Positions 3,421 to 39,064 of a stretch of DNA of 64,000 nt are shown piece by piece. The position numbers were made by a program, and so were the translations under genes. Each line of letters opens with the position of its first letter. Position 1 is the first letter of the stretch. The DNA is from a candidate division WWE3 bacterium. GTDB taxonomy: Bacteria; Patescibacteriota; WWE3; UBA101185; UBA10185. A model generated the notes under the pieces. That model saw nothing but the letters and a program-made list of their open reading frames with translations, was not told where the DNA came from and ran no database searches. The stretch spans positions 794,919-858,918 of the forward strand of contig WJKK01000001.1 of assembly GCA_014729135.1 (NCBI GenBank), in the 5' to 3' direction.

Positions 3421-3452
3421 GGAGATATTATATAACGTGAAAAATTGAATTT

Positions 3453-7006: not shown

Positions 7007-8209
7007 CTACACACTAAACCTAAATTCAACAACATCTCCTTCTCTCATAGCATAATCCTTACCTTCGGATCGAATCTTGCCTTGGTTACGGGCTTCCTTC
7101 CAGCCTTCTAGTTTAACTAGAATATTGTATGAAATTACTTGAGCTGCTATAAATCCTCGTTGAAAGTCGGAGTGGATTTTGCCTGCTGCTTCGGGGGCGG
7201 TAGAGCCTTCTTTGATGGTCCATGCATGTACTTCTTTTGGGCCATAGGTGAAGAAGGTTTGTAGTCCAAGGAGTTTGTAGCTTTCGCGAATGATTTTGTT
7301 GAGGCCGGATTCTTGAATGCCTACTTGCTCCATGTAATCTTTTTGCTCCTGTGGAGTTAGTGCAGCTAGATCGGCCTCTAATTTAGCGCAAACAGGTATT
7401 CCCTTGATTTGATGGTCAGAATGAGGGGACAGTGCATCGAAATCCTCCCTCGTTGGATTCTGACTTTCGTCAGAATGACGGTGTGGGGAGTGTGTCATCC
7501 CGGACTCGATCCGGGATCCCCAATCACCATAAACATCTTCAGAAACATTAAACACATACATTACAGGCTTTAACGTCAGCAAATTCAAATCCTTAACCAA
7601 TTCTCGCTCCTTCTCCGACAAATCCAAAGTCAAAGCCAACTTTCCCGCATTCAAATGCCCCTGCAGCCTCTTATAAACCGCAAGACGAACAATTGACTCC
7701 TTTTGACCGGACTTGGCAGCTCTCTCCTCCGTTGTAATACGCTTTTCCAAAACCTCCAAATCCGCCAAAATCAGCTCAGTATTAATAACTTCCTTGTCCT
7801 CCTGAGGAGAAACCGAACCCGCCCGAGCAATATTTGCGTCCCTAAACAAGCGCAAAACGTGAATAATTGCATCTACCTCGCGAATATGGCTCAAAAATTT
7901 ATTACCCAATCCTTCACCTTTTGCTGCTCCTTTAACCAATCCGGCAATGTCTACAAACTTAACTACTGCCGGAATCACCTTATCGGGATCCTTATCATGC
8001 TCTTTTCTAACCAAATCCGTCAGACCCTGCACACGAGAATCCGGAACCTCCACAATACCTACATTGGGCTCTATAGTGGCAAAGGGATAGTTGGCAGCCA
8101 GCGCAGTTTGCTTTTTTAGAAGTGCATTAAAAAGGGTGGATTTGCCTACATTGGGAAGGCCTACTATTCCTATGGAGAGGTTTGTGCTTTTGCTTGACAT
8201 AAGAAACAC
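7007..8209 (-). CDS. ychF: ribosome-binding ATPase YchF (Obg-family GTPase) carrying an in-frame repeat-derived insertion
   Basis: P-loop IGIVGLPNVGKSTLFNAL, G-domain motifs and a C-terminal TGS-like region. About 35 aa (SGMTHSPHRHSDESQNPTREDFDALSPHSDHQIKG) are encoded by the dispersed palindromic element at 7456-7520. Confidence 0.85.
   Translation of the reverse strand: MFLMSSKSTNLSIGIVGLPNVGKSTLFNALLKKQTALAANYPFATIEPNVGIVEVPDSRVQGLTDLVRKEHDKDPDKVIPAVVKFVDIAGLVKGAAKGEGLGNKFLSHIREVDAIIHVLRLFRDANIARAGSVSPQEDKEVINTELILADLEVLEKRITTEERAAKSGQKESIVRLAVYKRLQGHLNAGKLALTLDLSEKERELVKDLNLLTLKPVMYVFNVSEDVYGDWGSRIESGMTHSPHRHSDESQNPTREDFDALSPHSDHQIKGIPVCAKLEADLAALTPQEQKDYMEQVGIQESGLNKIIRESYKLLGLQTFFTYGPKEVHAWTIKEGSTAPEAAGKIHSDFQRGFIAAQVISYNILVKLEGWKEARNQGKIRSEGKDYAMREGDVVEFRFSV
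7456..7520. repeat. dispersed palindromic element, family 2 (TCTGACTTTCGTCAGAATGAC ... CCCGGACTCGATCCGGG), inside ychF
   Basis: Related copies at 5638-5662, 13961-14017, 22671-22730 and 27181-27250. Confidence 0.7.
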
Positions 8210-8222
8210 TTTAACATAACAG

Positions 8223-9251
8223 CTACTTTAAAACGTAATGAGTTGCTCTCCCCTTCCCCTTCCTCCTTATCAAATCCAAATTTATTAGCTTATCAAAATC
8301 CAGAGCCCTAGTAGACTTAGCCCTATCCGTTAATTCCGCGTAATCCGAATCCGTTATAAAACCGTGCTTTTCAATATATTTGAGTATATCTTTATGGTGT
8401 TTCTTTAGTGTGGACCCGGGATCAACTCCCACTTTCTTAAGTTCCCCTGAAACCCTAAGCAACTCATCAATTATCCCATCGGTAAAGTATTCCAACCACT
8501 CGGTAAAGTCAATATCTTCGTTAATCTCATAATAATCACCAAGAACACCGACATTTTGAAAGTACTTAGTTACATTACTGTTGTAATAATTCTCAAAACT
8601 AAATAAATTAAAAGTATCTAAACCCATATTGGCAAGTAGCAGCTTAGTAAGGAGTCTTGCAGTACGGCCATTACCATCCGCAAAAGGGTGAATAATGACA
8701 AACTGCTTGTGAAATAAACCCGCAAGAAGCACGGGATCAACACCATCTCCGTTTTTATTTATGTAATCAAGTAAAGCATCCATTAATTTCCCTACATCTT
8801 GAACATTGGGAGGTAAATATACCGTTTCACCCGTTCTTGGATCGTTAACAACTACAGGAACATCTCTGTAACTACCGGATTTCTCTTTTGGCAACAGGTC
8901 CTTTACTACTTTTTTATGGATGTTTTGCACAAGTTCATCCCCAATTTTTACCTTTTGATCTAACAATTTACCCAAATAGACCAAAGCATCGTTATAATTG
9001 AGAACTTCCTTTTCGCTATCTCTAGCATGTTTCGGTTTACTTTTTAAGATTTTTTTAACTTCCGTTAAAGGGAGAGGGTTGCCTTCAATACTTGTCGAGG
9101 AGTGAACGGATAAACTAACAGCGCTTTTTTCTAAATGCATTTTAATTGTAGTTGGAAAACGTTTATTGTTTAGTTCCGTTTTTATCTTTGTGATTTGCTT
9201 GATGTTATCGAGCAATTTAGGAGTAACTGTGTATTTGGGAGTGTACTTCAT
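8223..9251 (-). CDS. Fic/DOC family protein (likely AMPylase) with an internal inhibitory-helix-like motif
   Basis: Fic active-site motif IIHPFADGNGRTARLL; N-terminal STSIEGN matches the (S/T)xxxE(G/N) inhibitory motif of class II/III Fic proteins. Confidence 0.85.
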   Translation of the reverse strand: MKYTPKYTVTPKLLDNIKQITKIKTELNNKRFPTTIKMHLEKSAVSLSVHSSTSIEGNPLPLTEVKKILKSKPKHARDSEKEVLNYNDALVYLGKLLDQKVKIGDELVQNIHKKVVKDLLPKEKSGSYRDVPVVVNDPRTGETVYLPPNVQDVGKLMDALLDYINKNGDGVDPVLLAGLFHKQFVIIHPFADGNGRTARLLTKLLLANMGLDTFNLFSFENYYNSNVTKYFQNVGVLGDYYEINEDIDFTEWLEYFTDGIIDELLRVSGELKKVGVDPGSTLKKHHKDILKYIEKHGFITDSDYAELTDRAKSTRALDFDKLINLDLIRRKGKGRATHYVLK

Positions 9252-9493
9252 GGACTAATATTAGACGATAATTAGACGATTGTCAACTACTAAGGAGGGT
9301 CTTTTTGGAAGCTGTTCCAGAGCCTTGCCAGAAACTATTCTACCTTTCGCATGCCTTATAAGAGCTAACTCTCCCGCAAACCCTCCGGTGAAACTACCTG
9401 CAAAACTCCAAAATAAGCCAAATCCAAAAGCTCCTCTAAAAAACACGAAAATTGCTATATAATAGAAACAATACCAATTTAGAAAGGCACTTT

Positions 9494-19080: not shown

Positions 19081-19539
19081 CTATATAGAAAAGCGGGCGG
19101 TCTTTGAAAGCACTATTTTCTCACCTGTTTTTGCAATAGCCTCAGTCACCAATTCACTCACTTTTTTACTTGGATCACGAATGTACTCATCTTCTAACAA
19201 TTCACCTACATCAAAGTAATCTTTAATAGCTGCTTGCATTGCAATTTCCTGTGCTAAATCCTTAAACTCATCAGTTTTTGCAACAAAATCTGTTTCACAC
19301 TCAAGCTGAATCATGCTACCAATATTGCCGCCTGTGTGAATGTAACTATGAATCAAGCCGGCACCTACTGTTCTTTCGGCAGTTTTCTTTGCTGCTATAG
19401 CTTTTCCACGTTCTATTAATGCTTCTTTAGCTTTCTCGAAATCTCCACCGGCTTCTTCTAAAGCTTTTTTAACATCTAATACGGAGGCGCTTGTTTCCTC
19501 ACGAAGTTTTTTAATATTTTTAATGTCTATTTTTGACAT
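19081..19539 (-). CDS. tsf: elongation factor Ts (short form)
   Basis: UBA-like N-terminus IKKLREETSASVLDVKKALEEAGGDFEKA and core TDFVAKTDEF; sits in the rpsB-tsf-frr arrangement. Confidence 0.8.
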   Translation of the reverse strand: MSKIDIKNIKKLREETSASVLDVKKALEEAGGDFEKAKEALIERGKAIAAKKTAERTVGAGLIHSYIHTGGNIGSMIQLECETDFVAKTDEFKDLAQEIAMQAAIKDYFDVGELLEDEYIRDPSKKVSELVTEAIAKTGEKIVLSKTARFSI

Positions 19540-19594: not shown

Positions 19595-20410
19595 TTATTT
19601 CTCTTCTTTATTCTCGTTCTCCTCACTTTCCTCCTTTTCCTGCTCCCGCTTCTCCTGCTCCCGCTTCTCCTGCTCCTGCTCCTCCTCAGCATCCTGCTCC
19701 TCCTCAGCATCCTGCTTCTCATAATCCTCATAACCCTTCTCAATAGCACCACACAAAACCTTCAAAATCAGCGAAGTAGACTTAATAGCATCATCATTTC
19801 CGGGAATAGGATAGTCAATCCCCGTAGGATCAGTATCAGTGTCAAGCAAAGCTACAATAGGAACATCGGTTCGCTTAGCCTCTCGTACAGCTGTTTTTTC
19901 TCGATGAGCATCAATAACAACAACAGCACCGGGCAATCCACGAATCCCAACAAGCCCACCCACCGAATTTTCAAGCTTCGTTATCTCCCTATCCAAAAGC
20001 AACTGCTCCTTTTTTGTGTACATTTCATACTCACCTGCTTCACGCTTCTTCTTCATTTTAACTAACTTATCAATATTATTCTTAATCACACGATAGTTAG
20101 TTAAAGTTCCACCAAGCCAGCGCTGATTTACATACAAAGCTTTGCAGTGTTGAGATTCCAGTTTGATAAGCTCAGAAACCTGACGTTTAGTACCTACCAA
20201 AATAATCTGCTCTCCTTTTTTGGCCGTCTCATACAAAAACTCAGCGCCCTCCTTTAGCAACTCGTGAGTTTTTTCCAGATTTATTACGTGAATATTCTTG
20301 CGAGCCTCATAGATATAAGGCGCCGCATTAGGATGCCATCTTCGAATTTGATGTCCTAAGTGAACGCCTGCATCAAAGAGTTCTTTAACTGTTGGTATTT
20401 TTAGTTTCAT
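19595..20410 (-). CDS. rpsB: 30S ribosomal protein S2 with an acidic repetitive C-terminal extension
   Basis: [33 protein letters not shown]. Start taken at MKLKIPTV, which has AAGGAGG 9 nt upstream. The C-terminal tail ([23 protein letters not shown]) is encoded by tandem DNA repeats. Confidence 0.9.
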
Positions 20411-20793
20411 AAAAAAATCCTCCTTTTTTGTTTTGTACAAAGGAGGTTTAAAAAAATAAATATTTGGTTTACCTCCCTTTTATTTTGAACTTGATTTTGG
20501 CACTTTACACTGCAAGCTCTCATTGAGGCCCTGCTTTTTAAACTTTTCCTCTTGTGTTTTTTGGCTTTTCAGAGCTGTCTTCACAGGAGGTGTTTTGCAG
20601 AGAGGGTTCCTCACTGACTTTTGTAGACTAACATAAAGAGGGGGCGTGTGCAAAATTATTTAGAGATAGCGAGAAATGGGGAGGGCCTGCCAACAAACAA
20701 AATAAAGCTTATTGTGACATGTTTTATTTTTCTTATATAATTGGCTTATCTCGATTCCTACTTAAAACCCATCAAGGTTTAAGCAGAAACATT

Positions 20794-20983: not shown

Positions 20984-21946
20984 ATGATCATAAACCTACT
21001 AAACAAAAAAAGCAAAAAAGACGAATACCTCTTCAAAAAAGAATACCACCAGCGCCTAGAGCAAATCCTTAAAGAAAAATACAGCATAGAAACAAAATTC
21101 TCCGAAAACTTCTCGTGGGGATACACCTCCACATCCACCTACATTAAAGACACCAAAGATCAAGAATTTGTTGCCAGAATCAGCGCCAACACTCCCCTAA
21201 AAGAAGCTGCGACTTTTAAAGACCTGGCCATCACCCAACAAATTGCCGACAAAATCGCAACCAGAACCTACATTCCCAACAACAAAGGAAATCACCTGAC
21301 TTACATTGACCAAGAGCGCGACTCCCAAGGCAACACCCTCATAGAAAACGCCATCCTTACCTGCTATCCGTACATTCATGGCACTCCCCCATTTAAAATG
21401 ACAGAGGACATTATCACGCAAGCGGTTGACCGACTTAAAATGATTCATAAGCTGGACCCGACGCCTATTCAGAAGGCTTTGGAAACGTATTCTTTGGAGG
21501 AGGCTTTAACCGCCGACCTGGGCAAGATTGCAGCGGTTGTGGAGGGGGTTGAAGGTGCTGACAGTGCAGAAATCAACAAAGTAGCTTTCCTCCATGGAGA
21601 CATGACACCCTCCAACATTTTGGTGTCCTATGAAAAGATTGTGGCTGTGGTGGATTTTGAGTTGGCTGTGGTGGGTCCGGTGGAGTGGGATTTGGCAAGG
21701 CTTGCGGTTTTTTCGTGGTTTCGTTTACCGGAAAATTATGATTTTGGAACAGTTTTGGATTTGATAGAGAAAACTTATAAAGAGGATTTAAAGCGTGATT
21801 TTTTGGAGGCGTTTTCACTGGAGCATGCTAAAAGCCATGCCGAAAATATTGAATCTCATAAGGATTTGCATAAAAGCAAAAGGGACTATCGAGCACAGCT
21901 GAAATTTGCTAAAAAGAAGTTAAAGCAACTGAAAAAAAGTCTTTAA
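20984..21946 (+). CDS. APH/choline-ethanolamine-kinase-family phosphotransferase
   Basis: Catalytic loop HGDMTPSNILV (HGDxxxxN) and metal-binding VDFE (the DFG equivalent); convergent with the ThyA-like operon. Confidence 0.7.
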   Translation: MIINLLNKKSKKDEYLFKKEYHQRLEQILKEKYSIETKFSENFSWGYTSTSTYIKDTKDQEFVARISANTPLKEAATFKDLAITQQIADKIATRTYIPNNKGNHLTYIDQERDSQGNTLIENAILTCYPYIHGTPPFKMTEDIITQAVDRLKMIHKLDPTPIQKALETYSLEEALTADLGKIAAVVEGVEGADSAEINKVAFLHGDMTPSNILVSYEKIVAVVDFELAVVGPVEWDLARLAVFSWFRLPENYDFGTVLDLIEKTYKEDLKRDFLEAFSLEHAKSHAENIESHKDLHKSKRDYRAQLKFAKKKLKQLKKSL

Positions 21947-23595
21947 TTTGCAGGGCGCAAAGGTTGGTCCTGCTCAAACGTAAGCCCAAGCTTCACCGCA
22001 GCCTCCGCCTTAGCCAACTGCCTCCCCAAATCACAAGCAGCTCCCAAATCGCTAACAAGCAAATCCTTAAAAATCATAGCCGACAAATCTCGTGCCGCCT
22101 TCTCTGCATGACCATCAATAGAAAACTTAGCCAACTCCTTAGTACCCTCCGGTGAGAAAAACGTCACCAAAATTTGCGAACTGTCATCCCCTGACAAACA
22201 CACCGTATAATAACCGCGAGGATCATACTGGCAAGTGCGCCCTAAATGATCATTTTCTGCCACTACGGCCAAAGCAGCCTCCCAATTAATCTCGTAAATC
22301 TCGGCAATATGGGAAATTGTGGTTAAAACACCCATCTCACAAGAAATCTTATGGGATAACTTTTTTTGAAAAGCTCGCAAGGCAAAGACGTTCAACGGCC
22401 AAGCCCCATAGATGTCGTTATTTCTGAACACGGCTGTCATGTCAAACTTCCCATCTACAACCTGACCTAAAATCATAACCATGCAAGGCACTCGCCACTT
22501 TTTGGTCTGCCCCATTTCCTTACGCTCAATATCAGAGGGGGGAAAATTGTCGTTATGCGGCTCCCATAAAACCGCCAATGCTCCCCTATCAAAGTTAAAG
22601 CGCTTTAATTTTTCCACCATGATTTTTTCCTGATCTAAGGGAATGTTTAGTTTGAAGTCAGGGTTTTTGGATTCCGGATCGAGTCCGGAAGAACGGGAAT
22701 CCGTAGAACTAGAGGCGGAATGACGGGAAAGACCTCCGAAGGAGTCTCTCCCCCACTTAAAAATTCGCTCCCCGTAAGTGTAAACCTCCTGTTTTTCTCC
22801 CGATTTGTTAGGCTCATTAGGATCAAAGAACCCCTTTATATAAAGGTCTAGCTGCTTTTTATCAAAATTAAAAAAGTCGTAAATCTCAGGACTTGCGGGA
22901 TCCTCTTCCTCAACAACAATGGAAAGGTTTTGAACCTGGCCAACCTCACCGTACATTCCGGGAATTCGACGACCAAAGCGAGTTACTGTTTTTAGAGCAT
23001 CCAACCAAGCTTCTCCAATGTATTTTCTACGGATTTTAAAAACTGACCTGTCGGTGGGAAATGTTTTAGGAGCAGCTTTTTCCGCCTCAGGAAATGTTAT
23101 AGGTTGTGTAAAGGGTTCCGTGTTTTTTGAGGCCTCATGCACCTTGGCTACTTTTCTTGCCAAATCCTCCAGAGATTCTAAACGAAAGTCATAAAAAGCC
23201 ACCTTTTGTCTTAGTAGCTCCAAAATCTCCAAAGGGATCTCCTTGTCAATAAAAGCTTTTTTTGTGTTTTTAATTGCCCAATGCGTAATATTCTCATTCT
23301 CATCCTGAACCGGCTCCACTCCTTTTTCAAAAAAATTCTTTAAAGCTATACCACTTTCCTGCCGATCTATTCCACACAAAAACAGATGCCGAATTTTTGG
23401 ATTAGCAAGAATGTTTCGCAAAAGATAGTTGATGCCTCCTTTTGTGTAGAGCTGCCCACATGCTGCAAAAGTTTGAGGAGTGAGCTTTTCGGCAACCATT
23501 TCTTTTGGCATCCAAAGTGTTGCTATTGCAGTGGAGGAGTTTAGGTTTTCCATTAGGATGCGGTCTTTGAAGTATTTCGGCCAGTTTTCAATCAC
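21943..23595 (-). CDS. thymidylate-synthase-like (ThyA-fold) multidomain protein, 550 aa, carrying an in-frame repeat-derived insertion
   Basis: The core WEPHNDN...VPCMVMILGQVVDGKFDMTAVFRNNDIYGAWPLNVFALRAF aligns with the ThyA PCH...DGKLSCQLYQRSxDVFLGVPFNIASYALL region; catalytic Cys, Arg and Asp are retained. There is an N-terminal extension of about 190 aa and a C-terminal extension of about 80 aa. Residues SRHSASSSTDSRSSGLDPESKNPD are encoded by the palindromic element at 22671-22730. Confidence 0.6.
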   Translation of the reverse strand: MIENWPKYFKDRILMENLNSSTAIATLWMPKEMVAEKLTPQTFAACGQLYTKGGINYLLRNILANPKIRHLFLCGIDRQESGIALKNFFEKGVEPVQDENENITHWAIKNTKKAFIDKEIPLEILELLRQKVAFYDFRLESLEDLARKVAKVHEASKNTEPFTQPITFPEAEKAAPKTFPTDRSVFKIRRKYIGEAWLDALKTVTRFGRRIPGMYGEVGQVQNLSIVVEEEDPASPEIYDFFNFDKKQLDLYIKGFFDPNEPNKSGEKQEVYTYGERIFKWGRDSFGGLSRHSASSSTDSRSSGLDPESKNPDFKLNIPLDQEKIMVEKLKRFNFDRGALAVLWEPHNDNFPPSDIERKEMGQTKKWRVPCMVMILGQVVDGKFDMTAVFRNNDIYGAWPLNVFALRAFQKKLSHKISCEMGVLTTISHIAEIYEINWEAALAVVAENDHLGRTCQYDPRGYYTVCLSGDDSSQILVTFFSPEGTKELAKFSIDGHAEKAARDLSAMIFKDLLVSDLGAACDLGRQLAKAEAAVKLGLTFEQDQPLRPAN

Positions 23596-23620
23596 AGGAG
23601 TATTTTAGCATGGGAGTTTT

Positions 23621-24097
23621 TTAAGCCCTACCCCAAACAACATCTTCCGGGATTTGTGTTACAGAAACTCCTGCTTCTTTAAAAACAGGCATTGCCTCAT
23701 TTCCCGAGGTAAAGTGATCTGACATATAAAAAATTTGCACTACCCCCTCCCCTACTAGTTTCTTTGCACAATCCATACAGGGAAAACGGGTTACATAGAC
23801 CGTAGCTCCTTTTATACTGACTCCCTTTTGTTTGGCTTGATTTAGAGCGGCTATTTCAGCGTGAATAATCGGAGGCATGCCACTTTCCTGCTCCACGACG
23901 TCGCTTTGCTCCGAAATGTCGCGGGAAAGGGCATGCCCTCCTTTTGCAATTTTATTATGACCTTCGCCAATAACGACACCTTCCGACGAAACAAAAACAC
24001 ATCCCGTGCGTACATCCAGTGAAGAATTGTCACACAACAAACACGCTCTTTGCATTAAATTAATATCCTGTGAATTAAAACTCATAAAACAAACCAA
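23621..24097 (-). CDS. dCMP (deoxycytidylate) deaminase with an in-frame hairpin-element insertion
   Basis: Zinc motifs HAEIAAL and PCMDCAKKL. About 20 aa (ALSRDISEQSDVVEQESGMP) are encoded by the palindromic element at 23876-23936. Confidence 0.75.
   Translation of the reverse strand: MVCFMSFNSQDINLMQRACLLCDNSSLDVRTGCVFVSSEGVVIGEGHNKIAKGGHALSRDISEQSDVVEQESGMPPIIHAEIAALNQAKQKGVSIKGATVYVTRFPCMDCAKKLVGEGVVQIFYMSDHFTSGNEAMPVFKEAGVSVTQIPEDVVWGRA
23876..23936. repeat. dispersed hairpin element, family 3 (stem GGCATGCCACTTTCC/GGGAAAGGGCATGCC, loop ...CTCCACGACGTC...CGAAATGTCGC...), inside the dCMP deaminase gene
   Basis: The loop core recurs at 29507-29545, 29576-29636 and 50822-50868 with different flanking stems. 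Confidence 0.6.
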
Positions 24098-24137
24098 CCC
24101 TTACGGAGCAGTTGCCTAACAAAAAATTTTAGCAGCG

Positions 24138-24677
24138 TCAGCGACAAGCTTTTTTCGCGAAGGGAATTTCCGCAGCCACGCTCCGCAACCTCTTAGCCAT
24201 CTCCACCGGAGCAACCTCAATATCGCAAAAATTGTAACTAAACCTAAAATTCTCATAGACCATAAACTCCGGTGTAATAGGCAACAAATGAATGTGCAAA
24301 TGCTTCAAACTACTCCCCGATTTTTTAGTCCCCTCCCGATACAAAACATTCACATCCTTGACATCACAACCTTGGCGAATAACCTCCATTCCAAGTGAAA
24401 TCATTTTATGAGCATCCCGCCAATCCTGAGGTGAAAAATCCTCCAAACGCTCAATATGCTTTTTTGGAATCACCATTAAATGGCCATCAATATAGGGAAA
24501 AAGATTCATAGTTAAAACAACATCGCCGGATTCCGCAATAATATACTTTTCCTTCAAATCACAAAAAGGGCACTTGGTTACAGAACTTGCAATATCACTA
24601 TACCAATGGGATTTGCGTGCATTCTTCTGCGCCTCCTCCGAATAAGCATGCTTTTTATTTGTGTCATCCTTTTTCAT
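24138..24677 (-). CDS. HIT-family protein (GalT/Ap4A-phosphorylase-like branch) with an N-terminal CxxC
   Basis: Histidine triad HLHIHLLP; CPFCDLKEK zinc-binding-like motif. Confidence 0.7.
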   Translation of the reverse strand: MKKDDTNKKHAYSEEAQKNARKSHWYSDIASSVTKCPFCDLKEKYIIAESGDVVLTMNLFPYIDGHLMVIPKKHIERLEDFSPQDWRDAHKMISLGMEVIRQGCDVKDVNVLYREGTKKSGSSLKHLHIHLLPITPEFMVYENFRFSYNFCDIEVAPVEMAKRLRSVAAEIPFAKKACR

Positions 24678-24734
24678 AGTTTAAAACCCAGGCAGTAGGA
24701 GCAGCGCAAAAAACAGAACGTAATAAAAGCCACC

Positions 24735-26015
24735 TCAAACATCCCCATTCAGCCGAGACCGCTCCATCAAAAACGCCTCATAACGGCTGCGATCCATACA
24801 CTCCTCAAAAATCTCCCTCACCTTCTCATGCGCCACCTTATCTATTATAGCCGACGCCGAAATATTTGTAGACTGCTTTGCTCCACGGATGACCTCACCG
24901 CCATAACTTTTCATAGCCTTATACTCCGGAGAGTCCTTGTAACCTTCATTCCAGCTTTCCTTAACCGTATAAAAAACGTCAGGCTTTAACCCATGAATCG
25001 TCTGCAAAACATCTGTCTGAGGGAAAATTGCCACATGATCAACCATATCCAAGCTTGCCAAAACATAAGCTCGCGATCTTTCCGACATTACCGGACGACC
25101 GGATCCTTTTAAACTGCGAACAGCCTCATCGGATGGGATTGCTGCCACTAAAACGTCTCCTTGCAAAGATGCCTGCTCAATAAAGCGGGCATGCCCCACG
25201 TGAAGCAAATCGTAACTTCCTGAAACTAAAACCACTTTTTTACCTTGCTTTTTGTACTTTTCGGAAAGGGTCGGCAGCTCTTTTGGCGTGTGAATGAATT
25301 TGTTGGCGTTGTAGGCAAAAAGATTTAGAGGCTTTTGCTGTCCAAAATCCACCGGTTTTAAGTTGGGCTCGGCATTAAAATTTAGGGAGGGCATGTTGTC
25401 GTTGAGGTAAGTTTGAAGGATTTGGAGAAAGCGGATGTGGGCAATGGAGCTTACCAGGCTGTTAACGCTGTAGTAGGGCTGCATTTTAGCTTCTCGGTAA
25501 GTAGCGCCACCATACATTTCTAAAACCGCTTTGTCCTGGTTGTTGCGAAGGCCATTTTCCCAGTCGTGTTCGCAGGTGTAAAAGGTTTCCGGTTGCAGCA
25601 TGATAAGAGAGGCATGCGGTCGGTCGTTGTCTACAATTGTCACATAGTCAACGTTTTTTATGTAGGTGACAAGTTCGGCTCTGATGTCTTCGGGGATTAA
25701 CGGGTAAGGCTTGCCTTTAACTCTCTTGTCGGAGGCATCTGAGGAGACGCCGGCTACTAGGATATGTCCTGCTGCTTTTGCGTCTGCTAAGTAGCGGCAG
25801 TGTCCGGGGTTGATTAAATCCCAGGAGCCTATTGTGAAGACGATTTTCTTGCCTTGCTTTTTGAGTTTTTTGCTTGTTTTTTGAAGGTCTTTGAATTCTA
25901 GGAGTTTTTTGTGGCGCTTTTTGTGATTTTTTTGTTTGGTTTTTTGGGTTTTGGGAGGTAGTTTGGAGGCTTTGTTGTGGGCTTGGTTCTGAGTTTCTTG
26001 TGCTTTGTTTGCCAT
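24735..26015 (-). CDS. tandem cytidylyltransferase-domain protein (two TagD/ECT-like CTP-transferase domains) with a Lys-rich N-terminus
   Basis: Domain 1 GSWDLINPGH...SDASDKRVKG; domain 2 GSYDLLHVGH...SDEAVRSLKG (the HxGH and RxxKG motifs of the cytidylyltransferase superfamily). The N-terminal 55 aa are K/Q-rich. Confidence 0.6.
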   Translation of the reverse strand: MANKAQETQNQAHNKASKLPPKTQKTKQKNHKKRHKKLLEFKDLQKTSKKLKKQGKKIVFTIGSWDLINPGHCRYLADAKAAGHILVAGVSSDASDKRVKGKPYPLIPEDIRAELVTYIKNVDYVTIVDNDRPHASLIMLQPETFYTCEHDWENGLRNNQDKAVLEMYGGATYREAKMQPYYSVNSLVSSIAHIRFLQILQTYLNDNMPSLNFNAEPNLKPVDFGQQKPLNLFAYNANKFIHTPKELPTLSEKYKKQGKKVVLVSGSYDLLHVGHARFIEQASLQGDVLVAAIPSDEAVRSLKGSGRPVMSERSRAYVLASLDMVDHVAIFPQTDVLQTIHGLKPDVFYTVKESWNEGYKDSPEYKAMKSYGGEVIRGAKQSTNISASAIIDKVAHEKVREIFEECMDRSRYEAFLMERSRLNGDV

Positions 26016-26151
26016 TGTAATGTGATGATATCACACAGGAAAAGTGGGAAACGCGACCAAAACAACCCTATAAGTTGAGAAAATGAGAGAAAAGAAGTAG
26101 AATTTCCCCAGTTAATCGGGTGTTGTTAGAGAAGTCAAACAGGAGGAATGA

Positions 26152-26404
26152 GATGGAAATAGGCGGAGAAACGATAGCGCTACTCGTAGGATTGGGGTTG
26201 GTCTTCGTCGGAGTAGGTATTACCCTATTGAGAAATCCCCCGGCATGGACATGGCCCCATATGACGGAAGGAGAGTTCGAAACGGAGGGGTGCCCGGAAT
26301 GCGGCTACAAGACGTCACCAAAGGACGTTTTGGGAACATACGCTTGTCCGAAATGCGGGAAAAAGGTCATTCTCATCTCCCAATGGGAAAAGGAGAATAT
26401 GTAA
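26152..26404 (+). CDS. small membrane-anchored zinc-ribbon protein (paralog 1)
   Basis: AGGAGG lies 6 nt upstream of ATG; TM helix IALLVGLGLVFVGVGITLL; C-terminal CPECG...CPKCGKK zinc ribbon. Confidence 0.45.
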
Positions 26405-26613
26405 TGCCACCGCAGTTTTGGCAGGGTCTACTAATAGCCATACCGATTGGAACCATCGTTTTCTTCCTGCGGAGAGACAGTATCGTTCATATCTCCCAAG
26501 AAGAGTGGGATGAGTTCGGATGCCCTCGGTGCGAGGCAAAAGGGCACTACAAAAAAAACGATGTCCTACACTGCGCCGAGTGTGGGAAACGTTACATAAT
26601 CGACGCAGAATAG
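26404..26613 (+). CDS. small membrane-anchored zinc-ribbon protein (paralog 2)
   Basis: TAATG overlap with paralog 1; MPPQFWQGLLIAIPIGTIVFFL TM helix; CPRCE...CAECGKR zinc ribbon. Read from the sequence because the track merges it with an upstream frame. Confidence 0.45.
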   Translation: MPPQFWQGLLIAIPIGTIVFFLRRDSIVHISQEEWDEFGCPRCEAKGHYKKNDVLHCAECGKRYIIDAE

Positions 26614-27051
26614 AAACAAGATGGGGGTCGCCCAAAGACGCTTGGGCGATCCCTGCTACCACTCCCCTTTTTAACTACTCCACATAAAACGTTTTCAAAA
26701 AGCACACTCTTTTCCCTTTTTTAAAACCATTCCATAGATTTGCACGATATCCTATAAAGTAATAAAATTGTCCCTGTCGCCAAAATTTCATTGCGAAAGG
26801 AGAAACTCGTGAGCGGAAAGACAAAAATCGTGGTGAGGTGCACTTGCTCGAAAAACCCCATATACAAGGGAAAATCGATACGAAGGGCTCAAGAAGTCTA
26901 TCAAGAGCACGCAAAGCAAGGACACCAACCTGGATTTGGTTCCTCAAAGTAGAGTATCTCGCGGGTGAGACTGCCAAAGACGTAATCGGCAAGCTCATTC
27001 GCGAGACCATCCCCCTTCCACAAACAACTTCAAACTCAAATTCCATTTTTT

Positions 27052-27129
27052 ATAAAGCGCAGAAATATCCCTTTTGAACGAATTTTGGCGTACTCGCCAA
27101 CCTGAGCAAAAAAGGGATATTTCAAGCTG
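27052..27129. repeat. 78-bp structured palindromic repeat, copy A
   Basis: ATAAAGCGCAGAAATATCCCTTTTG..CGAATTTTGGCGTACTCGCCAACCTGAGCAAAAAAGGGATATTTCAAGCTG is nearly identical (2 mismatches) to 49781-49858. It has 16-bp outer inverted arms and an inner TTGGCG/CGCCAA hairpin. Confidence 0.8.
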
Positions 27130-27291
27130 CTAAATCAAAAGGGGTGAAGCGAGAAAGGGTATGCCTGTTTTATCAGAGATCCTGACTTTCGTCAGGATGA
27201 CGGTATGAAGCTCAGGATGACGCACTACTAAAAAGGATGACGGAATACAAAATTTAGAATAGGTAAACAAGCTCTGGAGGTATGACCGGAT

Positions 27292-29448
27292 CTAAGAATC
27301 TTTAGCCTCGTCACCATCCTCACTCCCCTCAGCACCCTCCTCCAAAGGATTCTTCCAAGATGACCACTCACAATCCGGATAATTACTGCAACCAAAAAAC
27401 TCCCGACCCTTCGCCTTCTTCCTCACAACCTCCCCATCCTCACAATCAGGACACTTCATGCCAATCTTATCCAAATAAGGCTTCGTATTCTTACAATCAG
27501 GATAATTGCTGCACGCCAAAAACTTCCCATAACGCCCACGCTTCAAAATAAAATGACCATCATCACACTTATCACACTCCCCAAAATCCGTAATCTCCTT
27601 ACCGTCCTCATCAAAAACCTTATCCTCCTCCAAAGGCTCCGCATAATCACACTCCGGATAACCCGAACAACTCAAAAACTTCCCATACTTCCCCAACTTC
27701 ACAACAAGCTTATTCTTCTTACACTTGGGGCAAGTCTTATCCGTCTCCTCCAGCGTTGTAACATCCCTTTTATTAAGCTCTTTCTCCTTTTTCTCCAGAG
27801 TCTTCTCAAACGGAGTGTAAAACTCCTTAATAATTTTGTGCCAATCCTTGCCTTCATGAGCAATGGCATCCAAATCATCTTCCATTTCAGCCGTAAAGTC
27901 ATAACCAACTATTGACGGAAAGTGCTCTACTAAAAGGTCGGTTACTACATAAGCTACATCTTCAGGGATAAAATAACGACCTTCTTTGCGAATATATTTT
28001 CTTCTTTGGATTGTGGAAATTGTTGGAGCATACGTTGAGGGACGACCAATTCCTAATTCTTCCAACTTTTTTATCAGGGTTGCGTCAGAATATCTTGCAG
28101 GAGGTTGAGTAAAATGTTGATCCGTTCTTACTTCTTTTGCCTCTAGAGAAGTGCCTTCTTTTATCTCCGGGAGTTCAGTTAGCTCACCTGTAGAAGAACC
28201 AATTCCCAATTTTTCTCCAACAGCCAACCACCCTTTAAATGTAATGATAGAGCCGTTTGCTCGCAACATGTAACCTTTTTTAGACTCTATATCCACACGA
28301 GTTTGATCATAAACTGCGGGAACAGATTGGCATTCCAAAGCCCTTTGCCAAATCAATGAGTAAAGTTTGTGCTCATCCTTAGTTAGTTTCAACTTTTCAG
28401 GAGTGTTTTTAATGTCGGTGGGTCGAACAGCTTCATGCGCTTCCTGGGCTCCTTTGGATTTGGTCTTAAACTGCTTAGCTTTTTTAGGGATGTACTCCTC
28501 TCCTAGTTCTTTTTTCAAATGAGATCTGGTGCTTTTTACAAAAGCCGGCGCCAAGTTCAAGGAGTCAGTTCTGTGATACGTAATATGACCTTTCTCAAAG
28601 AGCTTTTGCGCTATGCCCATGGTCCTTCGAGCTGTAAACCCAAAAACATTAGAGGCTGCTCGCTGAAGTGTAGATGTCTTAAAGGGCTTAGGAGTCTTTC
28701 GCTTACGCTGACTCTTTTTAACTAAGGCAACCTCAAATTCGTCCTTTTCTAACTCCTTTTTAATCTTTTCAGCATCTTTTTCGTTGGAAATCTCAACCTT
28801 TTTGCCATCCTTTTTCTTTAAATCCGCCGTCAACTGCTCCTTTTTAGTGGTCAAAAAGTCAACGTCCAGTGTCCAATACTCCTCAACATCAAAGGCATCT
28901 CTTTCGCGCTCTTTTTCGACAATTAACCTTACGGCGACGCTTTGCACCCTTCCTGCGGAAAGCCCATAGCGAACTTTTTTCCAAAGGAGTGGTGACAGCT
29001 TATAACCTACAAGCCGATCTAAAACTCGACGAGCTTGCTGGGCATTTACAAGATCTTCGTTTAGCTCTGCGGGATGATCAAAGGCGTCCATAACGGCATC
29101 TTTTGTGAGCTCGTGGAAAAAGACGCGGGAGAATTTGAGATCTTTGTTTTTTTCTTTTAATAAGTGCTTTAAATGCCAGGCTATTGCCTCCCCTTCTCGG
29201 TCAGGGTCGGTTGCTAAAACCACTTCTTTTGTTTCTTTGGTAAGTTTTTGCAGCTCTTTTATAGTTTTTTTAGCTTTTTTAGGAACTACGTACTGCGGTT
29301 CAAAGTTGTTTTCTACATCTACACCGAGGTCTTTACGAGGAAGATCCCGTACGTGGCCTTTTGAGGATGTGACGGAGAATTTGTCCTTAGGTAAGTATTT
29401 AGATAGTGTTTTTGCTTTGGTTGGTGACTCTACAATTACTAGACTCAT
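27292..29448 (-). CDS. topA: DNA topoisomerase I
   Basis: Toprim N-terminus MSLVIVESPTKAKTLSKYL...GHVRDLP and multiple C-terminal C4 zinc-ribbon repeats. Confidence 0.9.
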   Translation of the reverse strand: MSLVIVESPTKAKTLSKYLPKDKFSVTSSKGHVRDLPRKDLGVDVENNFEPQYVVPKKAKKTIKELQKLTKETKEVVLATDPDREGEAIAWHLKHLLKEKNKDLKFSRVFFHELTKDAVMDAFDHPAELNEDLVNAQQARRVLDRLVGYKLSPLLWKKVRYGLSAGRVQSVAVRLIVEKERERDAFDVEEYWTLDVDFLTTKKEQLTADLKKKDGKKVEISNEKDAEKIKKELEKDEFEVALVKKSQRKRKTPKPFKTSTLQRAASNVFGFTARRTMGIAQKLFEKGHITYHRTDSLNLAPAFVKSTRSHLKKELGEEYIPKKAKQFKTKSKGAQEAHEAVRPTDIKNTPEKLKLTKDEHKLYSLIWQRALECQSVPAVYDQTRVDIESKKGYMLRANGSIITFKGWLAVGEKLGIGSSTGELTELPEIKEGTSLEAKEVRTDQHFTQPPARYSDATLIKKLEELGIGRPSTYAPTISTIQRRKYIRKEGRYFIPEDVAYVVTDLLVEHFPSIVGYDFTAEMEDDLDAIAHEGKDWHKIIKEFYTPFEKTLEKKEKELNKRDVTTLEETDKTCPKCKKNKLVVKLGKYGKFLSCSGYPECDYAEPLEEDKVFDEDGKEITDFGECDKCDDGHFILKRGRYGKFLACSNYPDCKNTKPYLDKIGMKCPDCEDGEVVRKKAKGREFFGCSNYPDCEWSSWKNPLEEGAEGSEDGDEAKDS

Positions 29449-38191: not shown

Positions 38192-38266
38192 GCCTGGATA
38201 GCTCAGTGGTAGAGCAATCCCCTTGTAAGGGATAGGTCGTGAGTTCAAATCTCACTCCAGGCTCCA
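38192..38266 (+). tRNA. tRNA-Thr (anticodon TGT)
   Basis: Manual cloverleaf: acceptor GCCTGGA/TCCAGGC, D GCTC-AGTGGTA-GAGC, anticodon stem ATCCC/GGGAT with loop CTTGTAA, T-loop TTCAAAT, CCA encoded. Confidence 0.85.
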
Positions 38267-38579
38267 GAGGCCCCGCTGAAAGCGGGGGCGATGGCTTAAC
38301 AAAACACGAGCTTTCCTTTTGGACAGCAATGTTCAAGCAAAGTGTTTTGTTATGCTCGAAATCCGCCGAAGGCGGATTGAGAAACTTGTGATAAATTGAA
38401 AACATAAGCACCCACCCCAAGCCGGGGTACCGAACTGTAAAGTTTTTGCAAAAAACTTTATCAGCTTAAGCAAACGCGTAGCGTTTGTTTATGGCTAAAA
38501 AGTAGCAAAGCTACTTTTTATAGTCTTGAGTACCTTGTCAAGGTTTGTGATAAATTGAAAATATGAATACCTACCTCTA

Positions 38580-38665
38580 GCCGGGGTACCGAAGCGGTCA
38601 AACGGAACTGTCTGTAAAACAGTCGGCATTAGCCTACATAGGTTCGAATCCTATCCCCGGCACCA
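38580..38665 (+). tRNA. tRNA-Tyr (anticodon GTA) with a long variable arm
   Basis: Acceptor GCCGGGG/CCCCGGC, anticodon stem ACTGT/ACAGT with loop CTGTAAA, variable arm CGGCATTAGCCTAC, T-loop TTCGAAT, CCA encoded. Confidence 0.85.
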
Positions 38666-38804
38666 GCAAAAATCGCGAGTGAAGCGAGTATTTTTGCTGG
38701 CTCAAGCAAATGTGAGCGAATGCGAACATTTGTTTGTTGCCTCACAAGTTGTACTCAACTTGTGAAAGTGTGAAAGAAACGGTTTTATTAGATACAAGTT
38801 TTTA

Positions 38805-38880
38805 GCCCACTTAGCTCAGTTGGTAGAGCAACTCCATGGTAAGGAGTAGGTCGGCAGTTCAATTCTGCCAGTGGGCTCCA
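38805..38880 (+). tRNA. tRNA-Thr (anticodon GGT)
   Basis: Acceptor GCCCACT/AGTGGGC, anticodon stem ACTCC/GGAGT with loop ATGGTAA, T-loop TTCAATT, CCA encoded. Confidence 0.8.
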
Positions 38881-38934
38881 GAAAATCCACAACCACATTC
38901 CGCAAACAACCACCCAAGAATTTGCACCAAAAAC

Positions 38935-38966
38935 AGGTTGCTCGAGAACTCAAATGCATCTATAAT
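38935..38966 (+). promoter_or_regulatory. sigma70-like promoter upstream of tRNA-Trp (TTGCTC-N17-TATAAT)
   Basis: ttgctc gagaactcaaatgcatc tataat, read directly, about 25 nt upstream of the tRNA-Trp 5' end. Confidence 0.45.
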
Positions 38967-38990
38967 GCTTACGCTAAAAAGGTTTTACAA

Positions 38991-39064
38991 GGGGACGTCG
39001 GTTAGTGGTAAACCATGGGACTCCAAATCCCAAACCGGGGGTTCGATTCCCTCCGTCCCTGCCA
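38991..39064 (+). tRNA. tRNA-Trp (anticodon CCA)
   Basis: Acceptor GGGGACG/CGTCCCT (G1-U72 wobble), D GGTT-AGTGGTA-AACC, anticodon stem TGGGA/TCCCA with loop CTCCAAA, T-loop TTCGATT, CCA encoded. Confidence 0.8.

Follow-up and report, generated by a model that had tools for sequence, protein, structure and literature searches.

Why do a dCMP deaminase and a thymidylate synthase-like protein share a locus with a small-molecule kinase, a nucleotidyltransferase (NT), and a HIT-family protein? The five-gene cluster lies in a 64,000-nucleotide stretch of a candidate division WWE3 genome (the window), and all five open reading frames were found at the coordinates listed in Table 1. As the first-pass annotation had described, four genes run on the minus strand in the order NT, HIT, deaminase, thymidylate synthase, and a plus-strand kinase gene converges on them. 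The intergenic gaps on the minus strand measure 57, 40, and 25 bp, and the stop codons of the kinase and synthase genes overlap by 4 bp. That annotation proposed either a modified pyrimidine nucleotide or a Kennedy-like route to a CDP-alcohol as the purpose of the cluster. We consider it reasonably probable that the region is instead the WWE3 form of an operon that serves the pyrimidine branch of DNA-precursor synthesis throughout Patescibacteria, with the mechanism proposed below. The cluster would then be the local copy of a dTMP-making set found in many ultra-small Patescibacteria (CPR), in which a widely conserved but previously undescribed assembly of enzymes makes an ordinary end product.

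Table 1. Genes and domains of the WWE3 cluster (window coordinates)
Feature	Position	Strand	Details
APH-fold small-molecule kinase	20984..21946	+	320 aa; Pfam APH, 55 bits
ThyA3, three-domain thymidylate synthase	21943..23595	-	550 aa
ThyA3 DUF4346 domain, C-terminal	21946..22233	-	residues about 455-550; DUF4346 at 458-543
ThyA3 thymidylate synthase domain, archaeal/methanogen type	22246..23058	-	residues about 180-450
ThyA3 Ser-rich disordered insert within synthase domain	22642..22749	-	residues about 283-318, 36 aa
ThyA3 MtrA-like Rossmann-type domain, N-terminal	23092..23595	-	residues 1-168; MtrA-like at 3-154
dCMP deaminase, short form	23621..24097	-	158 aa; Pfam dCMP_cyt_deam_1, 62.6 bits
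HIT-family protein	24138..24677	-	179 aa; Pfam HIT, 50.7 bits
Tandem HIGH-type NT, first operon gene	24735..26015	-	426 aa; two CTP_transf_like domains
NT C-terminal domain	24816..25268	-	residues about 250-400; canonical HVGH
NT N-terminal domain	25326..25874	-	residues about 48-230; degenerate NPGH replaces HxGH

The best family match to residues 188-439 of ThyA3 was TIGR03283 (103 bits, lower than the family cut-off of 174.55; the protein also scores under the curated cut-off of PF00303), and alignment to canonical ThyA with hhalign gave a probability of 97.3%. This alignment pairs C371 with C146, R391 with R166, D394 with D169, N402 with N177, Y274 with Y94, Y434 with Y209, and R337 with R126; across 23 homologues the aligned catalytic residues are mostly invariant, with the exception of R337. 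Like the archaeal thymidylate synthase (TIGR03283/MJ0757), ThyA3 has a compact ThyA fold with Cys, Arg, Asp, and Asn as the catalytic set, but only ThyA3 is flanked by MtrA-like and DUF4346 domains; to our knowledge, stand-alone archaeal thymidylate synthases are approximately 200 aa and have neither. Both flanking parts proved to be genuine conserved domains, as the first-pass annotation had suspected, so the alternative that ThyA3 is an ordinary ThyA with low-complexity inserts fails. The Ser-rich insert is lineage-specific: it is missing in most homologues, distant ones carry inserts of other lengths at the same site, and residues 286-316 have a pLDDT of <50. We compared the N-terminal domain with MtrA (PDB 5laa, 5l8x), which is the corrinoid subunit of methyl-H4MPT:CoM methyltransferase. 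The cobalamin-binding residues of MtrA are absent from the ThyA3 domain: His84, which ligates the cobalt, and the Glu54 that partners it are substituted, as is the GAIPF/YxEN segment, and the ThyA3 family has invariants of its own (TLW, GQLY, RN, NP, and Ser81).

We then considered the genomic surroundings of ThyA3 in related genomes. Among the 56 assessable loci, defined by at least 4 kb of sequence upstream of ThyA3, the deaminase lay upstream on the same strand in 48, HIT in 43, and NT in 40, with all three present in 37; these counts come from open reading frames called by a simple custom script and are of loci that are not phylogenetically independent. The NT-HIT-deaminase-ThyA linkage is kept in many Patescibacteria classes while the flanks vary (topA/rpsB versus nusG-L11-L1/gatB), and thus the scattering of orthologues that would have spoken against a module was not seen. 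Additional operon members in relatives include dUTPase/Tmk (21 loci), SHMT with FolD, DeoC, and NUDIX proteins.

Saccharibacteria-like contigs have this module next to a canonical ThyA of 270 aa. Use of a kinase-NT fusion as the sampling query recovered kinase-NT-HIT-deaminase sets adjoining canonical ThyA, and the NT proteins there were 75-84% identical to those of ThyA3 loci. DHFR adjoins canonical ThyA in 9 of 23 loci but was found adjacent to ThyA3 in none of 81. These data strongly support the view that ThyA3 fills the genomic slot of canonical ThyA, with the same metabolic place as the canonical ThyA-FolA (DHFR) pair. Fusion of a thymidylate synthase to extra domains recalls the bifunctional protozoan and plant DHFR-TS, although the fused domains of ThyA3 are not DHFR-like; that they are a candidate replacement for DHFR is a testable idea. 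Alternatively, the kinase, NT, and HIT proteins might salvage an FAD-, CoA-, or NAD-type cofactor needed by these domains, since cofactor salvage as a rule pairs a kinase with an adenylyltransferase, and NT weakly matches models of FAD synthetase, of archaeal PPAT, and of the NadR type. However, the kinase-NT-HIT-deaminase set also accompanies canonical ThyA, which lacks the extra domains, and its members are fused to the deaminase rather than to ThyA3, making cofactor salvage very improbable.

Because the module adjoins dUTPase/Tmk, SHMT, and FolD, and elsewhere canonical ThyA with DHFR, we assign it to ordinary dTMP/dTTP synthesis. The unusual additional domains and accessory enzymes might also serve to make or activate a hydroxymethyl-, hydroxy-, or other dUMP or dCMP derivative, in the style of phage hypermodification or nucleoside antibiotics. 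Among published diagnostic residues, Asn at N177 specifies uracil and Asp cytosine, Asn at D169 occurs in hydroxylases, and an acidic L143 (Asp/Glu) is a further diagnostic residue (PMC13326640). The ThyA3 equivalents are an invariant, uracil-specific Asn at N177, a folate-type Asp at D169, and Arg, Lys, or Thr, never an acidic residue, at L143. In addition, ThyA3 appears to be a housekeeping gene, found in 223 species (mostly Patescibacteria, plus a few DPANN archaea). Together with the co-operonic genes and the interchangeability with canonical ThyA and DHFR, these observations argue against the modified pyrimidine of the first-pass annotation, to which we give very little credence; dUMP hydroxymethylation by ThyA3 is still conceivable from its residues.

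The deaminase was correctly recognized from the outset: besides its Pfam score, its best solved relatives are the dCMP deaminases human DCTD (2w4l), T4 cd (1vq2), and Streptococcus mutans 2hvv. The annotated start is TTG, with an in-frame ATG 5 codons further downstream. Conversion of dCMP to dUMP by a zinc dCMP deaminase, and of dUMP to dTMP by ThyA3, is therefore strongly supported as a prediction from sequence.

NT matches PF01467 in two stretches and TIGR02199 (rfaE_dom_II) with 203 bits, a sum over two domains, and residues 251-395 align to positions 3-143 of the 144 in the latter model. The tandem architecture claimed for it was borne out, as was the occurrence of RxxKG/KxxKG twice, but HxGH is present only in the C-terminal domain, presumably the catalytic one. 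The Lys-rich leader of approximately 45 aa is real, though homologues do not conserve it. By motif scan, NPGH is present in 8 WWE3-like tandem NTs and HVGH/HIGH in 15 of 23 C-terminal domains; 24 of 51 single-domain NTs have HxGQ in place of HxGH, and nucleotidyl-transfer chemistry may be altered or lost in these. In other lineages the deaminase is longer and carries an N-terminal NT-like domain (hhalign probability 86-94%, E values of 1.5e-7 to 5e-6; six control families all gave <1%). Loci with at least two NT domains have short and long deaminases in a ratio of 25:0, and those with one NT domain in a ratio of 4:38, where three of the four exceptions have an NT truncated by the contig end. 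The NT-like deaminase domain is thus strictly complementary to the number of NT domains, and the NPGH domain has the same role of second NT-type domain as the N-terminal domain of long deaminases. We suggest that it is a non-catalytic partner, placed on the deaminase in most other lineages.

The HIT protein contains the expected CxxC (CPFC, residues 36-39) and an HLHIHLL motif (residues 126-132). Its closest solved structures, 6af2 (E value 6e-12) and the Rv2613c Ap4A phosphorylase 3ano (3e-11), place it by sequence in the Ap4A phosphorylase-like branch. It has the HxHxHxx motif in common with the Rv2613c-type enzymes, as well as the preceding Gly-Ser pair, which we take to be significant. It differs from them in its score of 53 bits, where the family cut-off is 290, in its additional N-terminal CxxC, and in having relatives fused to NT, deaminase, or NUDIX domains.

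Gene fusions join the same partners repeatedly. We observed APH-NT-NT-HIT proteins of 726-745 aa (L034, L039, and L062), an APH-NT plus an NT-HIT fusion at a single locus (L038), further NT-HIT (L032, P0188) and APH-NT (P0199) fusions, HIT-deaminase fusions (L005, L014/L016, L094), HIT-NUDIX fusions (L030 and others), and, in 38 loci, deaminases that bear the NT-like domain. Taken together, these data strongly support the kinase, NT, HIT, and deaminase as one functional unit, which is probably also a physical one. The independent fusions of kinase to NT likewise support a Kennedy-like pairing of these two proteins. The classic CDP-alcohol route gained no support, as no open reading frame in 105 loci contained a CDP-alcohol phosphotransferase motif. 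HIT links the kinase-NT pair to the deaminase, a connection for which the Kennedy pathway does not account.

The kinase, NT, and HIT proteins might nevertheless form a sugar-nucleotide or Kennedy-like pathway that activates a cell envelope component, with the kinase producing X-1-P or a phospho-alcohol, NT forming ADP- or CDP-X, and HIT or NUDIX proteins acting in turnover or exchange; proximity to the dTMP genes would reflect sharing or recycling of cytidine nucleotides, or inherited synteny. The nearest relatives of NT outside Patescibacteria are HldE domain II proteins (34-44% identity), which like HldC are heptose-1-phosphate adenylyltransferases and have the HIGH-type nucleotidyltransferase fold in common with NT; among solved structures its best relative is human ECT (3elb), the ethanolamine-phosphate cytidylyltransferase, which NT resembles as a tandem with one less canonical domain. 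The kinase model is nearest to the anomeric kinase NahK, with choline kinases also similar, and pathways of this kind typically contain kinase-NT fusions. Moreover, the bifidobacterial LNB/GNB Leloir-like pathway follows this logic, combining an APH-type anomeric kinase with a HIT-type transferase. As to differences from these relatives, HldE domain II is partnered by a PfkB kinase rather than an APH-fold one, single-domain NT orthologues reach 96-127 bits where the cut-off in the HldE domain II/HldC comparison is 181.5, and NT, unlike HldE/HldC and ECT, is coupled to HIT and dCMP deaminase. Against an envelope role, HIT-deaminase fusions have at least three separate origins, the deaminase gene of Parcubacteria sits between NT and HIT, and the only glycosyltransferase that recurs (GT4) lies on the other strand and is confined to some lineages. 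With the complementary deaminase domain and the lack of the phosphotransferase motif, this evidence renders an envelope role unlikely.

A further explanation is that the NT-type domains and HIT are chiefly regulatory, binding or interconverting nucleotides (dCTP, dTTP, or dinucleoside polyphosphates such as Ap4A) and thereby controlling the deaminase as well as the supply of dTTP, while the kinase would phosphorylate a small molecule for signalling. dCTP and dTTP are classic allosteric controllers of dCMP deaminases, every system has one degenerate NT-type domain (NPGH, HxGQ, or HKGY), and the nearest HIT relatives are Ap4A phosphorylases. Also in favor of regulation, a related kinase (L059) weakly matches the replication regulator CcrZ (E value 6.7e-7), an ATPase whose activity rises with ribose and deoxyribose (PMC12369353). 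In contrast, a full HxGH is usually retained in one NT domain of each system, HIT keeps an intact catalytic triad, and NT is very strongly constrained, its identity between lineages (75-84%) exceeding that of neighboring proteins (37-70%). We therefore regard a mainly regulatory function as improbable. The kinase itself is absent near Parcubacteria-type loci, and that of the window is fast-evolving, reaching the fused kinases solely via iterative profile searches of a set in which no other APH proteins were present as negative controls.

Returning to dTMP synthesis, we propose that the kinase-NT-HIT unit supplies the deaminase with its cytidine-nucleotide substrate. In the most likely chemistry, the kinase would make a phospho-acceptor, X-P; the folds and families involved suggest that this is either a sugar-1-phosphate or an amino-alcohol phosphate. 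NT would then convert X-P and (d)CTP to (d)CDP-X and PPi, and the Ap4A phosphorylase-like HIT would attack the alpha-phosphate, releasing (d)CMP or (d)CDP beside the deaminase. The gap between dCTP/dCDP and dCMP faced by organisms dependent on dCMP deaminase would thereby be filled. Several points count against this reading: three enzymes are a less economical way to dCMP than one dCTP pyrophosphatase, and a HIT protein of the phosphorylase type would yield (d)CDP, not (d)CMP. To these are added the HxGQ of many single-domain NTs, the lack of a kinase near Parcubacteria-type loci, the fast evolution of the window's kinase, and the ThyA3 scores under the curated cut-offs. The path from dCTP through dCMP and dUMP to dTMP is taken by the dCTPase gp56, cd, and td in T4 and by DCTPP1, DCTD, and TYMS in eukaryotes. 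The logic is the same, with dCMP supply preceding the deaminase and thymidylate synthase, and dUTPase and dTMP kinase near; however, those routes use a single pyrophosphatase where the WWE3 supply step would consist of kinase, NT, and HIT.

The five open reading frames (ORFs) named in the first-pass annotation were recovered at their positions by an ORF check (see the table). On the minus strand, the genes for a tandem HIGH-type nucleotidyltransferase (NT), a HIT protein, a deaminase and a ThyA-like protein, here called ThyA3, are separated by gaps of 57, 40 and 25 bp, and the stop codons of ThyA3 and the APH-fold kinase overlap by 4 bp. ThyA3 is 100% identical to a protein of an 864-kb candidate division WWE3 (Patescibacteria/CPR) contig. 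The cluster lies among housekeeping genes: topA and a PBP2-like gene are found on one flank, and rseP, frr, a short tsf and rpsB occupy the other. Promoter and terminator scans gave scores no better than those of shuffled sequence, and an Rfam search of the 1.3 kb upstream of NT (26000-27300), at E values up to 1, returned no RNA family.

Features of the cluster and other parts of the window
Feature	Position	Strand	Length	Remarks
NT	24735-26015	minus	426 aa	
HIT protein	24138-24677	minus	179 aa	
Deaminase	23621-24097	minus	158 aa	
ThyA3	21943-23595	minus	550 aa	
APH-fold kinase	20984-21946	plus	320 aa	convergent on the ThyA3 gene
First small ORF	26120-26404	plus	94 aa	divergent from the NT operon
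Second small ORF	26404-26613	plus	about 69 aa	in tandem with the first
Repeated motif	about 27180-27245			three copies of CGTCATCCT(GA), between topA and the small ORFs
Stem-loop	20794-20820		11-bp stem	perfect, AAAGCCTTCGC...GCGAAGGCTTT, between the rpsB and kinase starts
EF-Ts gene	19081-19539	minus	152 aa	
Ribosomal protein S2 gene	19595-20440	minus		C-terminal tail of ~45 aa rich in Glu, Gln and Lys
Very large ORF	40659-47111	minus	2150 aa	
Very large ORF	46939-49377	minus	812 aa	slight overlap with the 2150-aa ORF
tRNA genes	38192-39064			four: Thr, Tyr, Thr, Trp

ThyA3 was found in 223 species representatives, assigned to many classes of Patescibacteria, namely, WWE3, Dojka-, Shapiro-, Collier-, Nealson-, Falkow-, Buchanan-, Moranii- and Abawacabacteria, Paceibacterota and others, and in a few cases to DPANN archaea, the taxon labels of many of these MAG records being unreliable. 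In 80 fetched loci (L numbers), ORFs were predicted with an in-house script and grouped into clusters, of which the representatives were annotated. Of these loci, 56 had 4 kb or more of sequence upstream of ThyA3; there, the same strand carried the deaminase in 48, the HIT protein in 43, NT in 40 and all three in 37. The flanking genes change between lineages (topA and rpsB-tsf-frr in WWE3, nusG-L11-L1 and gatB in Parcubacteria), which indicates that the core is kept for its own sake; the grouping that the first-pass annotation had drawn from a single genome is thus a conserved linkage. Genes for dUTPase and dTMP kinase lie directly downstream in 21 loci, and those for SHMT and FolD likewise in several; deoxyribose-phosphate aldolase and NUDIX hydrolases also recur. 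The ThyA3 cluster is a dTTP-precursor operon.

An APH kinase was present in 34 loci of the 80. Of these, 21 are WWE3-like and have it downstream of ThyA3 in convergent orientation, as in the window; synteny across the whole region is common to these loci, and we therefore discounted them as independent evidence that the kinase belongs to the module. We retained it solely because 13 loci of other lineages have the kinase immediately upstream of NT or fused with it. No APH kinase was found near the Parcubacteria-type loci, and the NT, HIT and deaminase partners are absent from the DPANN loci. One Woesearchaeota contig (L067) carries a stand-alone 202-aa archaeal-type ThyA (3389-3997, minus strand) as well as a full ThyA3 (7995-9443, plus strand). 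In L074 (7441-7998) and at the equivalent place in L079, NT and HIT are absent and the gene for a 185-aa P-loop protein lies between those for the deaminase and ThyA3. This protein, which resembles T4-type dNMP kinase and the kinase-like N-terminal portion of anti-phage dCTP deaminases, may substitute for NT/HIT as a non-orthologous replacement.

The additional parts of the ThyA-like protein remarked on in the first-pass annotation proved to be conserved domains. ThyA3 consists of an MtrA-like domain (residues 3-154), a thymidylate synthase domain of the archaeal (methanogen) type (188-439) and DUF4346 (458-543). The ThyA fold is present, with scores below the curated thresholds (PF00303, 22.2 versus 24.3 bits; TIGR03283, 103.1 versus 174.55 bits). 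Residues were mapped by hhalign profile-profile alignment to canonical ThyA (probability 97.3%), in which a manually entered E. coli ThyA reference sequence was aligned together with 14 canonical ThyA proteins from the fetched loci. Pro370-Cys371 of ThyA3 corresponds to Pro145-Cys146 of the E. coli enzyme (the catalytic nucleophile), Arg391 to Arg166, Asp394 to Asp169, Asn402 to Asn177, Tyr274 to Tyr94, Tyr434 to Tyr209 and Arg337 to Arg126; in ThyA, Arg166, Asp169, Asn177, Tyr94 and Tyr209 bind dUMP. Among 23 homologues, Pro370-Cys371, Arg391, Asp394, Asn402 and Tyr274 are invariant, Tyr434 is nearly so and Arg337 is variable. The position of His207 is occupied by Glu432, and no equivalent of Arg21 was identified in the alignment to canonical ThyA.

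Three positions of the ThyA family are diagnostic of the reaction: Asn177 marks a uracil substrate and N177D a cytosine substrate, Asp169 marks the folate type and D169N a flavin hydroxylase, and an acidic residue at 143 (L143D/E) marks hydroxymethylation (PMC13326640). With Asn402, Asp394 and Arg368 at positions 177, 169 and 143, ThyA3 is predicted to be a dUMP-acting, folate-type enzyme. Synthesis of a modified pyrimidine, proposed in the first-pass annotation, is contradicted by the lack of the N177D, D169N and L143D/E signatures, and the occurrence of the same partner genes beside canonical ThyA (described below) also opposes a modified base.

The N-terminal domain has the Rossmann-type fold of MtrA, scoring 23.6 bits against a Pfam cutoff of 25. 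The cobalamin-binding features of MtrA are the cobalt ligand His84, Glu54 and a GAIPF/YxEN segment (PMC4915002). In ThyA3, His84 is replaced by an invariant Ser81 and Glu54 by Lys52, and the GAIPF/YxEN segment is missing, its region being unconserved. Because all of these defining features are lost, MetH-like cobalamin-dependent methyl transfer by this domain was rejected. The fetched loci contained no stand-alone MtrA-like or DUF4346 domain except in two split ThyA3 genes (L010, 7445-8923; L022, 4948-6355), which consist of an MtrA-like ORF of 143-186 aa and a synthase-plus-DUF4346 ORF of 281-345 aa. Proteins of 345-438 aa (P0071-P0075) also lack the N-terminal domain. The domain may be able to work as a separate subunit, or these forms may be frameshifts.

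For reciprocal sampling, we scanned metagenome contigs starting from a kinase-NT fusion protein (P0199). In the loci recovered, the kinase, NT, HIT (or HIT-NUDIX) protein and a long deaminase adjoin a canonical ThyA of 265-284 aa, and none of these loci contains the ThyA3 domains. Compared with three ThyA3 loci (L030, L036 and L061), identity was 75-84% for NT, 45-70% for HIT, 42-45% for the deaminase and 49-50% for a glycosyltransferase on the opposite strand (L036 and L061). The same partners thus stand beside either type of synthase, and therefore canonical ThyA and ThyA3 replace one another in the same slot. This exchange argues strongly, from genomic context, that ThyA3 is the thymidylate synthase. 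It also led us to reject the kinase, NT and HIT as suppliers of a cofactor to the extra ThyA3 domains and, together with the diagnostic residues, contradicts a cofactor-salvage role. In the Saccharibacteria-like contigs (L081-L104; e.g., L081, 8001-9578), the sole NT domain has HxGQ rather than HxGH, yet no other protein of the module is as well conserved (75-84% identity across lineages). The version of the module with canonical ThyA also occurs in cultivated Saccharibacteria. In L081, genes for an HD-domain 5'-deoxynucleotidase-like protein and a HAD phosphatase follow SHMT.

A gene for dihydrofolate reductase (DHFR) adjoined the module in 9 of 23 loci with canonical ThyA and was absent from all 81 with ThyA3 (the 80 loci and the 64-kb window; Fisher P = 3e-7), in otherwise syntenic surroundings. 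DUF4346 also terminates the archaeal dihydropteroate-synthase-like protein, an enzyme that likewise releases a dihydropterin product. Both observations hint at a self-sufficient synthase, in which the MtrA-like and DUF4346 domains would re-reduce dihydrofolate or supply reducing equivalents, a reading that we regard as possible but rather unlikely. A third hint is that folA occurs in 54.8% of 4,581 CPR genomes, compared with ~80% for glyA and folD (PMC11974145). Were ThyA3 self-sufficient, FolA would be dispensable and a third thymidylate route would exist beside ThyA with DHFR and the flavin-dependent ThyX.

The partner proteins could be placed in families, and no protein of the cluster, ThyA3 included, reached an equivalog-level score for a characterized enzyme. 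NT has two cytidylyltransferase-like domains (PF01467, 81 bits). The HxGH motif reported for both in the first-pass annotation is present in the C-terminal domain (HVGH), and the N-terminal domain has a degenerate NPGH. The best family is HldE domain II (TIGR02199), at 203 bits as a two-domain sum against a cutoff of 181.5; single-domain orthologues score 96-127 bits, below that cutoff. Among solved structures, the tandem-domain human ECT is its best match, and the nearest proteins outside Patescibacteria are HldE proteins, with 34-44% identity over one domain. No PfkB heptose kinase domain was found in the module across the annotated loci. The HIT protein carries CPFC and HLHIHLL (HxHxHxx) motifs (PF01230, 50.7 versus 21.5 bits); the mycobacterial Ap4A phosphorylases 6af2 and 3ano are its closest solved relatives, and it scores below the equivalog level for that enzyme (NF052622, 53 bits; cutoff, 290). 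The deaminase has IHAE (HAE) and FPCMDC (PCxxC) motifs (PF00383, 62.6 bits), its top solved matches are all dCMP deaminases, and its score lies below the ComEB equivalog cutoff (63.6 versus 219). The kinase has an APH domain with an HGDxxxxN catalytic loop and a DFE/DFG metal-binding motif; a homologue search gave only nine matches, all stand-alone, and a profile search against solved structures was weak (best E, 0.003).

Gene fusions connect these proteins repeatedly. Single ORFs of 726-745 aa join the APH kinase, two NT domains and HIT (L034, L039 and L062); L038 has APH-NT followed by NT-HIT. We also found NT-HIT (L032 and P0188), APH-NT (P0199), HIT-deaminase (L005; L014/L016; and L094, with a different deaminase subtype) and, in Dojkabacteria-like and Saccharibacteria-like loci, HIT-NUDIX. 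Several Parcubacteria-type loci have the deaminase gene between those for NT and HIT. Outside the WWE3-like group, deaminases are mostly 270-355 aa long, with an extra N-terminal domain that aligns to the NT family (hhalign probability, 86-94%; E, 1.5e-7 to 5e-6), compared with <1% for six unrelated control families from the same loci; in this domain HKGY replaces HxGH. Loci with two NT domains had a short deaminase in 25 of 25 cases and those with one NT domain a long deaminase in 38 of 42, NT being cut by the contig end in three of the four exceptions (Fisher P of about 1e-14, with lineages that are not independent). So every system pairs a canonical NT-type domain with a degenerate one, which is carried by NT, as in the window (NPGH), or by the deaminase. 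This complementarity is best explained by physical assembly of NT and deaminase. That the kinase, NT, HIT protein and deaminase act together is well supported.

Two activities are predicted with confidence: conversion of dCMP to dUMP by the deaminase and methylation of dUMP to dTMP by ThyA3 with methylene-tetrahydrofolate. Production of dUMP by dCMP deaminase requires a route to dCMP from dCTP or dCDP, the products of ribonucleotide reductase; the step from dCTP to dCMP is carried out by gp56 in phage T4 and by DCTPP1 in eukaryotes. We infer that the kinase, NT, HIT protein and deaminase together deliver the substrate of the deaminase. In the proposed route, NT would move (d)CMP from (d)CTP onto a phospho-acceptor produced by the kinase, and HIT would attack the alpha-phosphate, freeing (d)CMP beside the deaminase. 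Several points weaken this model: a simple pyrophosphatase would be a shorter route, the diphosphate would be the product of a phosphorylase-type HIT, and 24 of 51 single-domain NTs have HxGQ. Alternatively, the kinase, NT and HIT may belong to an envelope sugar-nucleotide pathway or, as the first-pass annotation also proposed, to a Kennedy-like one. Kinase and nucleotidyltransferase are fused in several lineages and may form a Kennedy-type kinase/cytidylyltransferase pair. The CDP-alcohol phosphotransferase motif D..DG..AR...G...D...D was found in no ORF of the gene neighborhoods searched (105 loci and the window), and the classic Kennedy pathway was rejected for this reason. A regulatory, nucleotide-sensing role is a further alternative to substrate delivery.

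All proteins of the cluster can be assigned to known superfamilies, and the pathway ends in an ordinary product; the cluster is a variant of a dTMP-synthesis operon. In the literature searched, we found no description of the three-domain architecture of ThyA3 or of the fusion-linked kinase/NT/HIT/deaminase assembly, and a full-text search for DUF4346 returned no paper. Patescibacteria account for a large part of bacterial diversity and depend on salvage for nucleotides, and what is known of their DNA-precursor metabolism comes almost wholly from automated annotation. In the Patescibacteria sampled here, the dTMP branch is built around a conserved operon, in which an APH-fold kinase, a HIGH nucleotidyltransferase and a HIT protein are tied to dCMP deaminase by repeated fusions, and many lineages use the three-domain thymidylate synthase. 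Study of the locus could close two pathway gaps, namely, the source of dCMP for organisms that use dCMP deaminase and a thymidylate synthesis that needs neither FolA nor ThyX. Should the assembly be essential and CPR specific, it would also mark the lineage and might offer a selective target.

Several minor features of the window were also recorded. Both small ORFs encode a single predicted membrane helix with a CxxC...CxxC zinc-ribbon after it, and the two overlap at ATGA, the stop of the first with the start of the second. The CGTCATCCT(GA) copies, one of which is followed by a short palindrome (CCTGACGAAAGTCAGG), look like a small repeat element. The stem-loop has a T run on one side only and a terminator score on both strands. 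EF-Ts is usually about twice as long as the product encoded here, and a short form (139-159 aa) is kept in 17 of 17 related loci that bear tsf.
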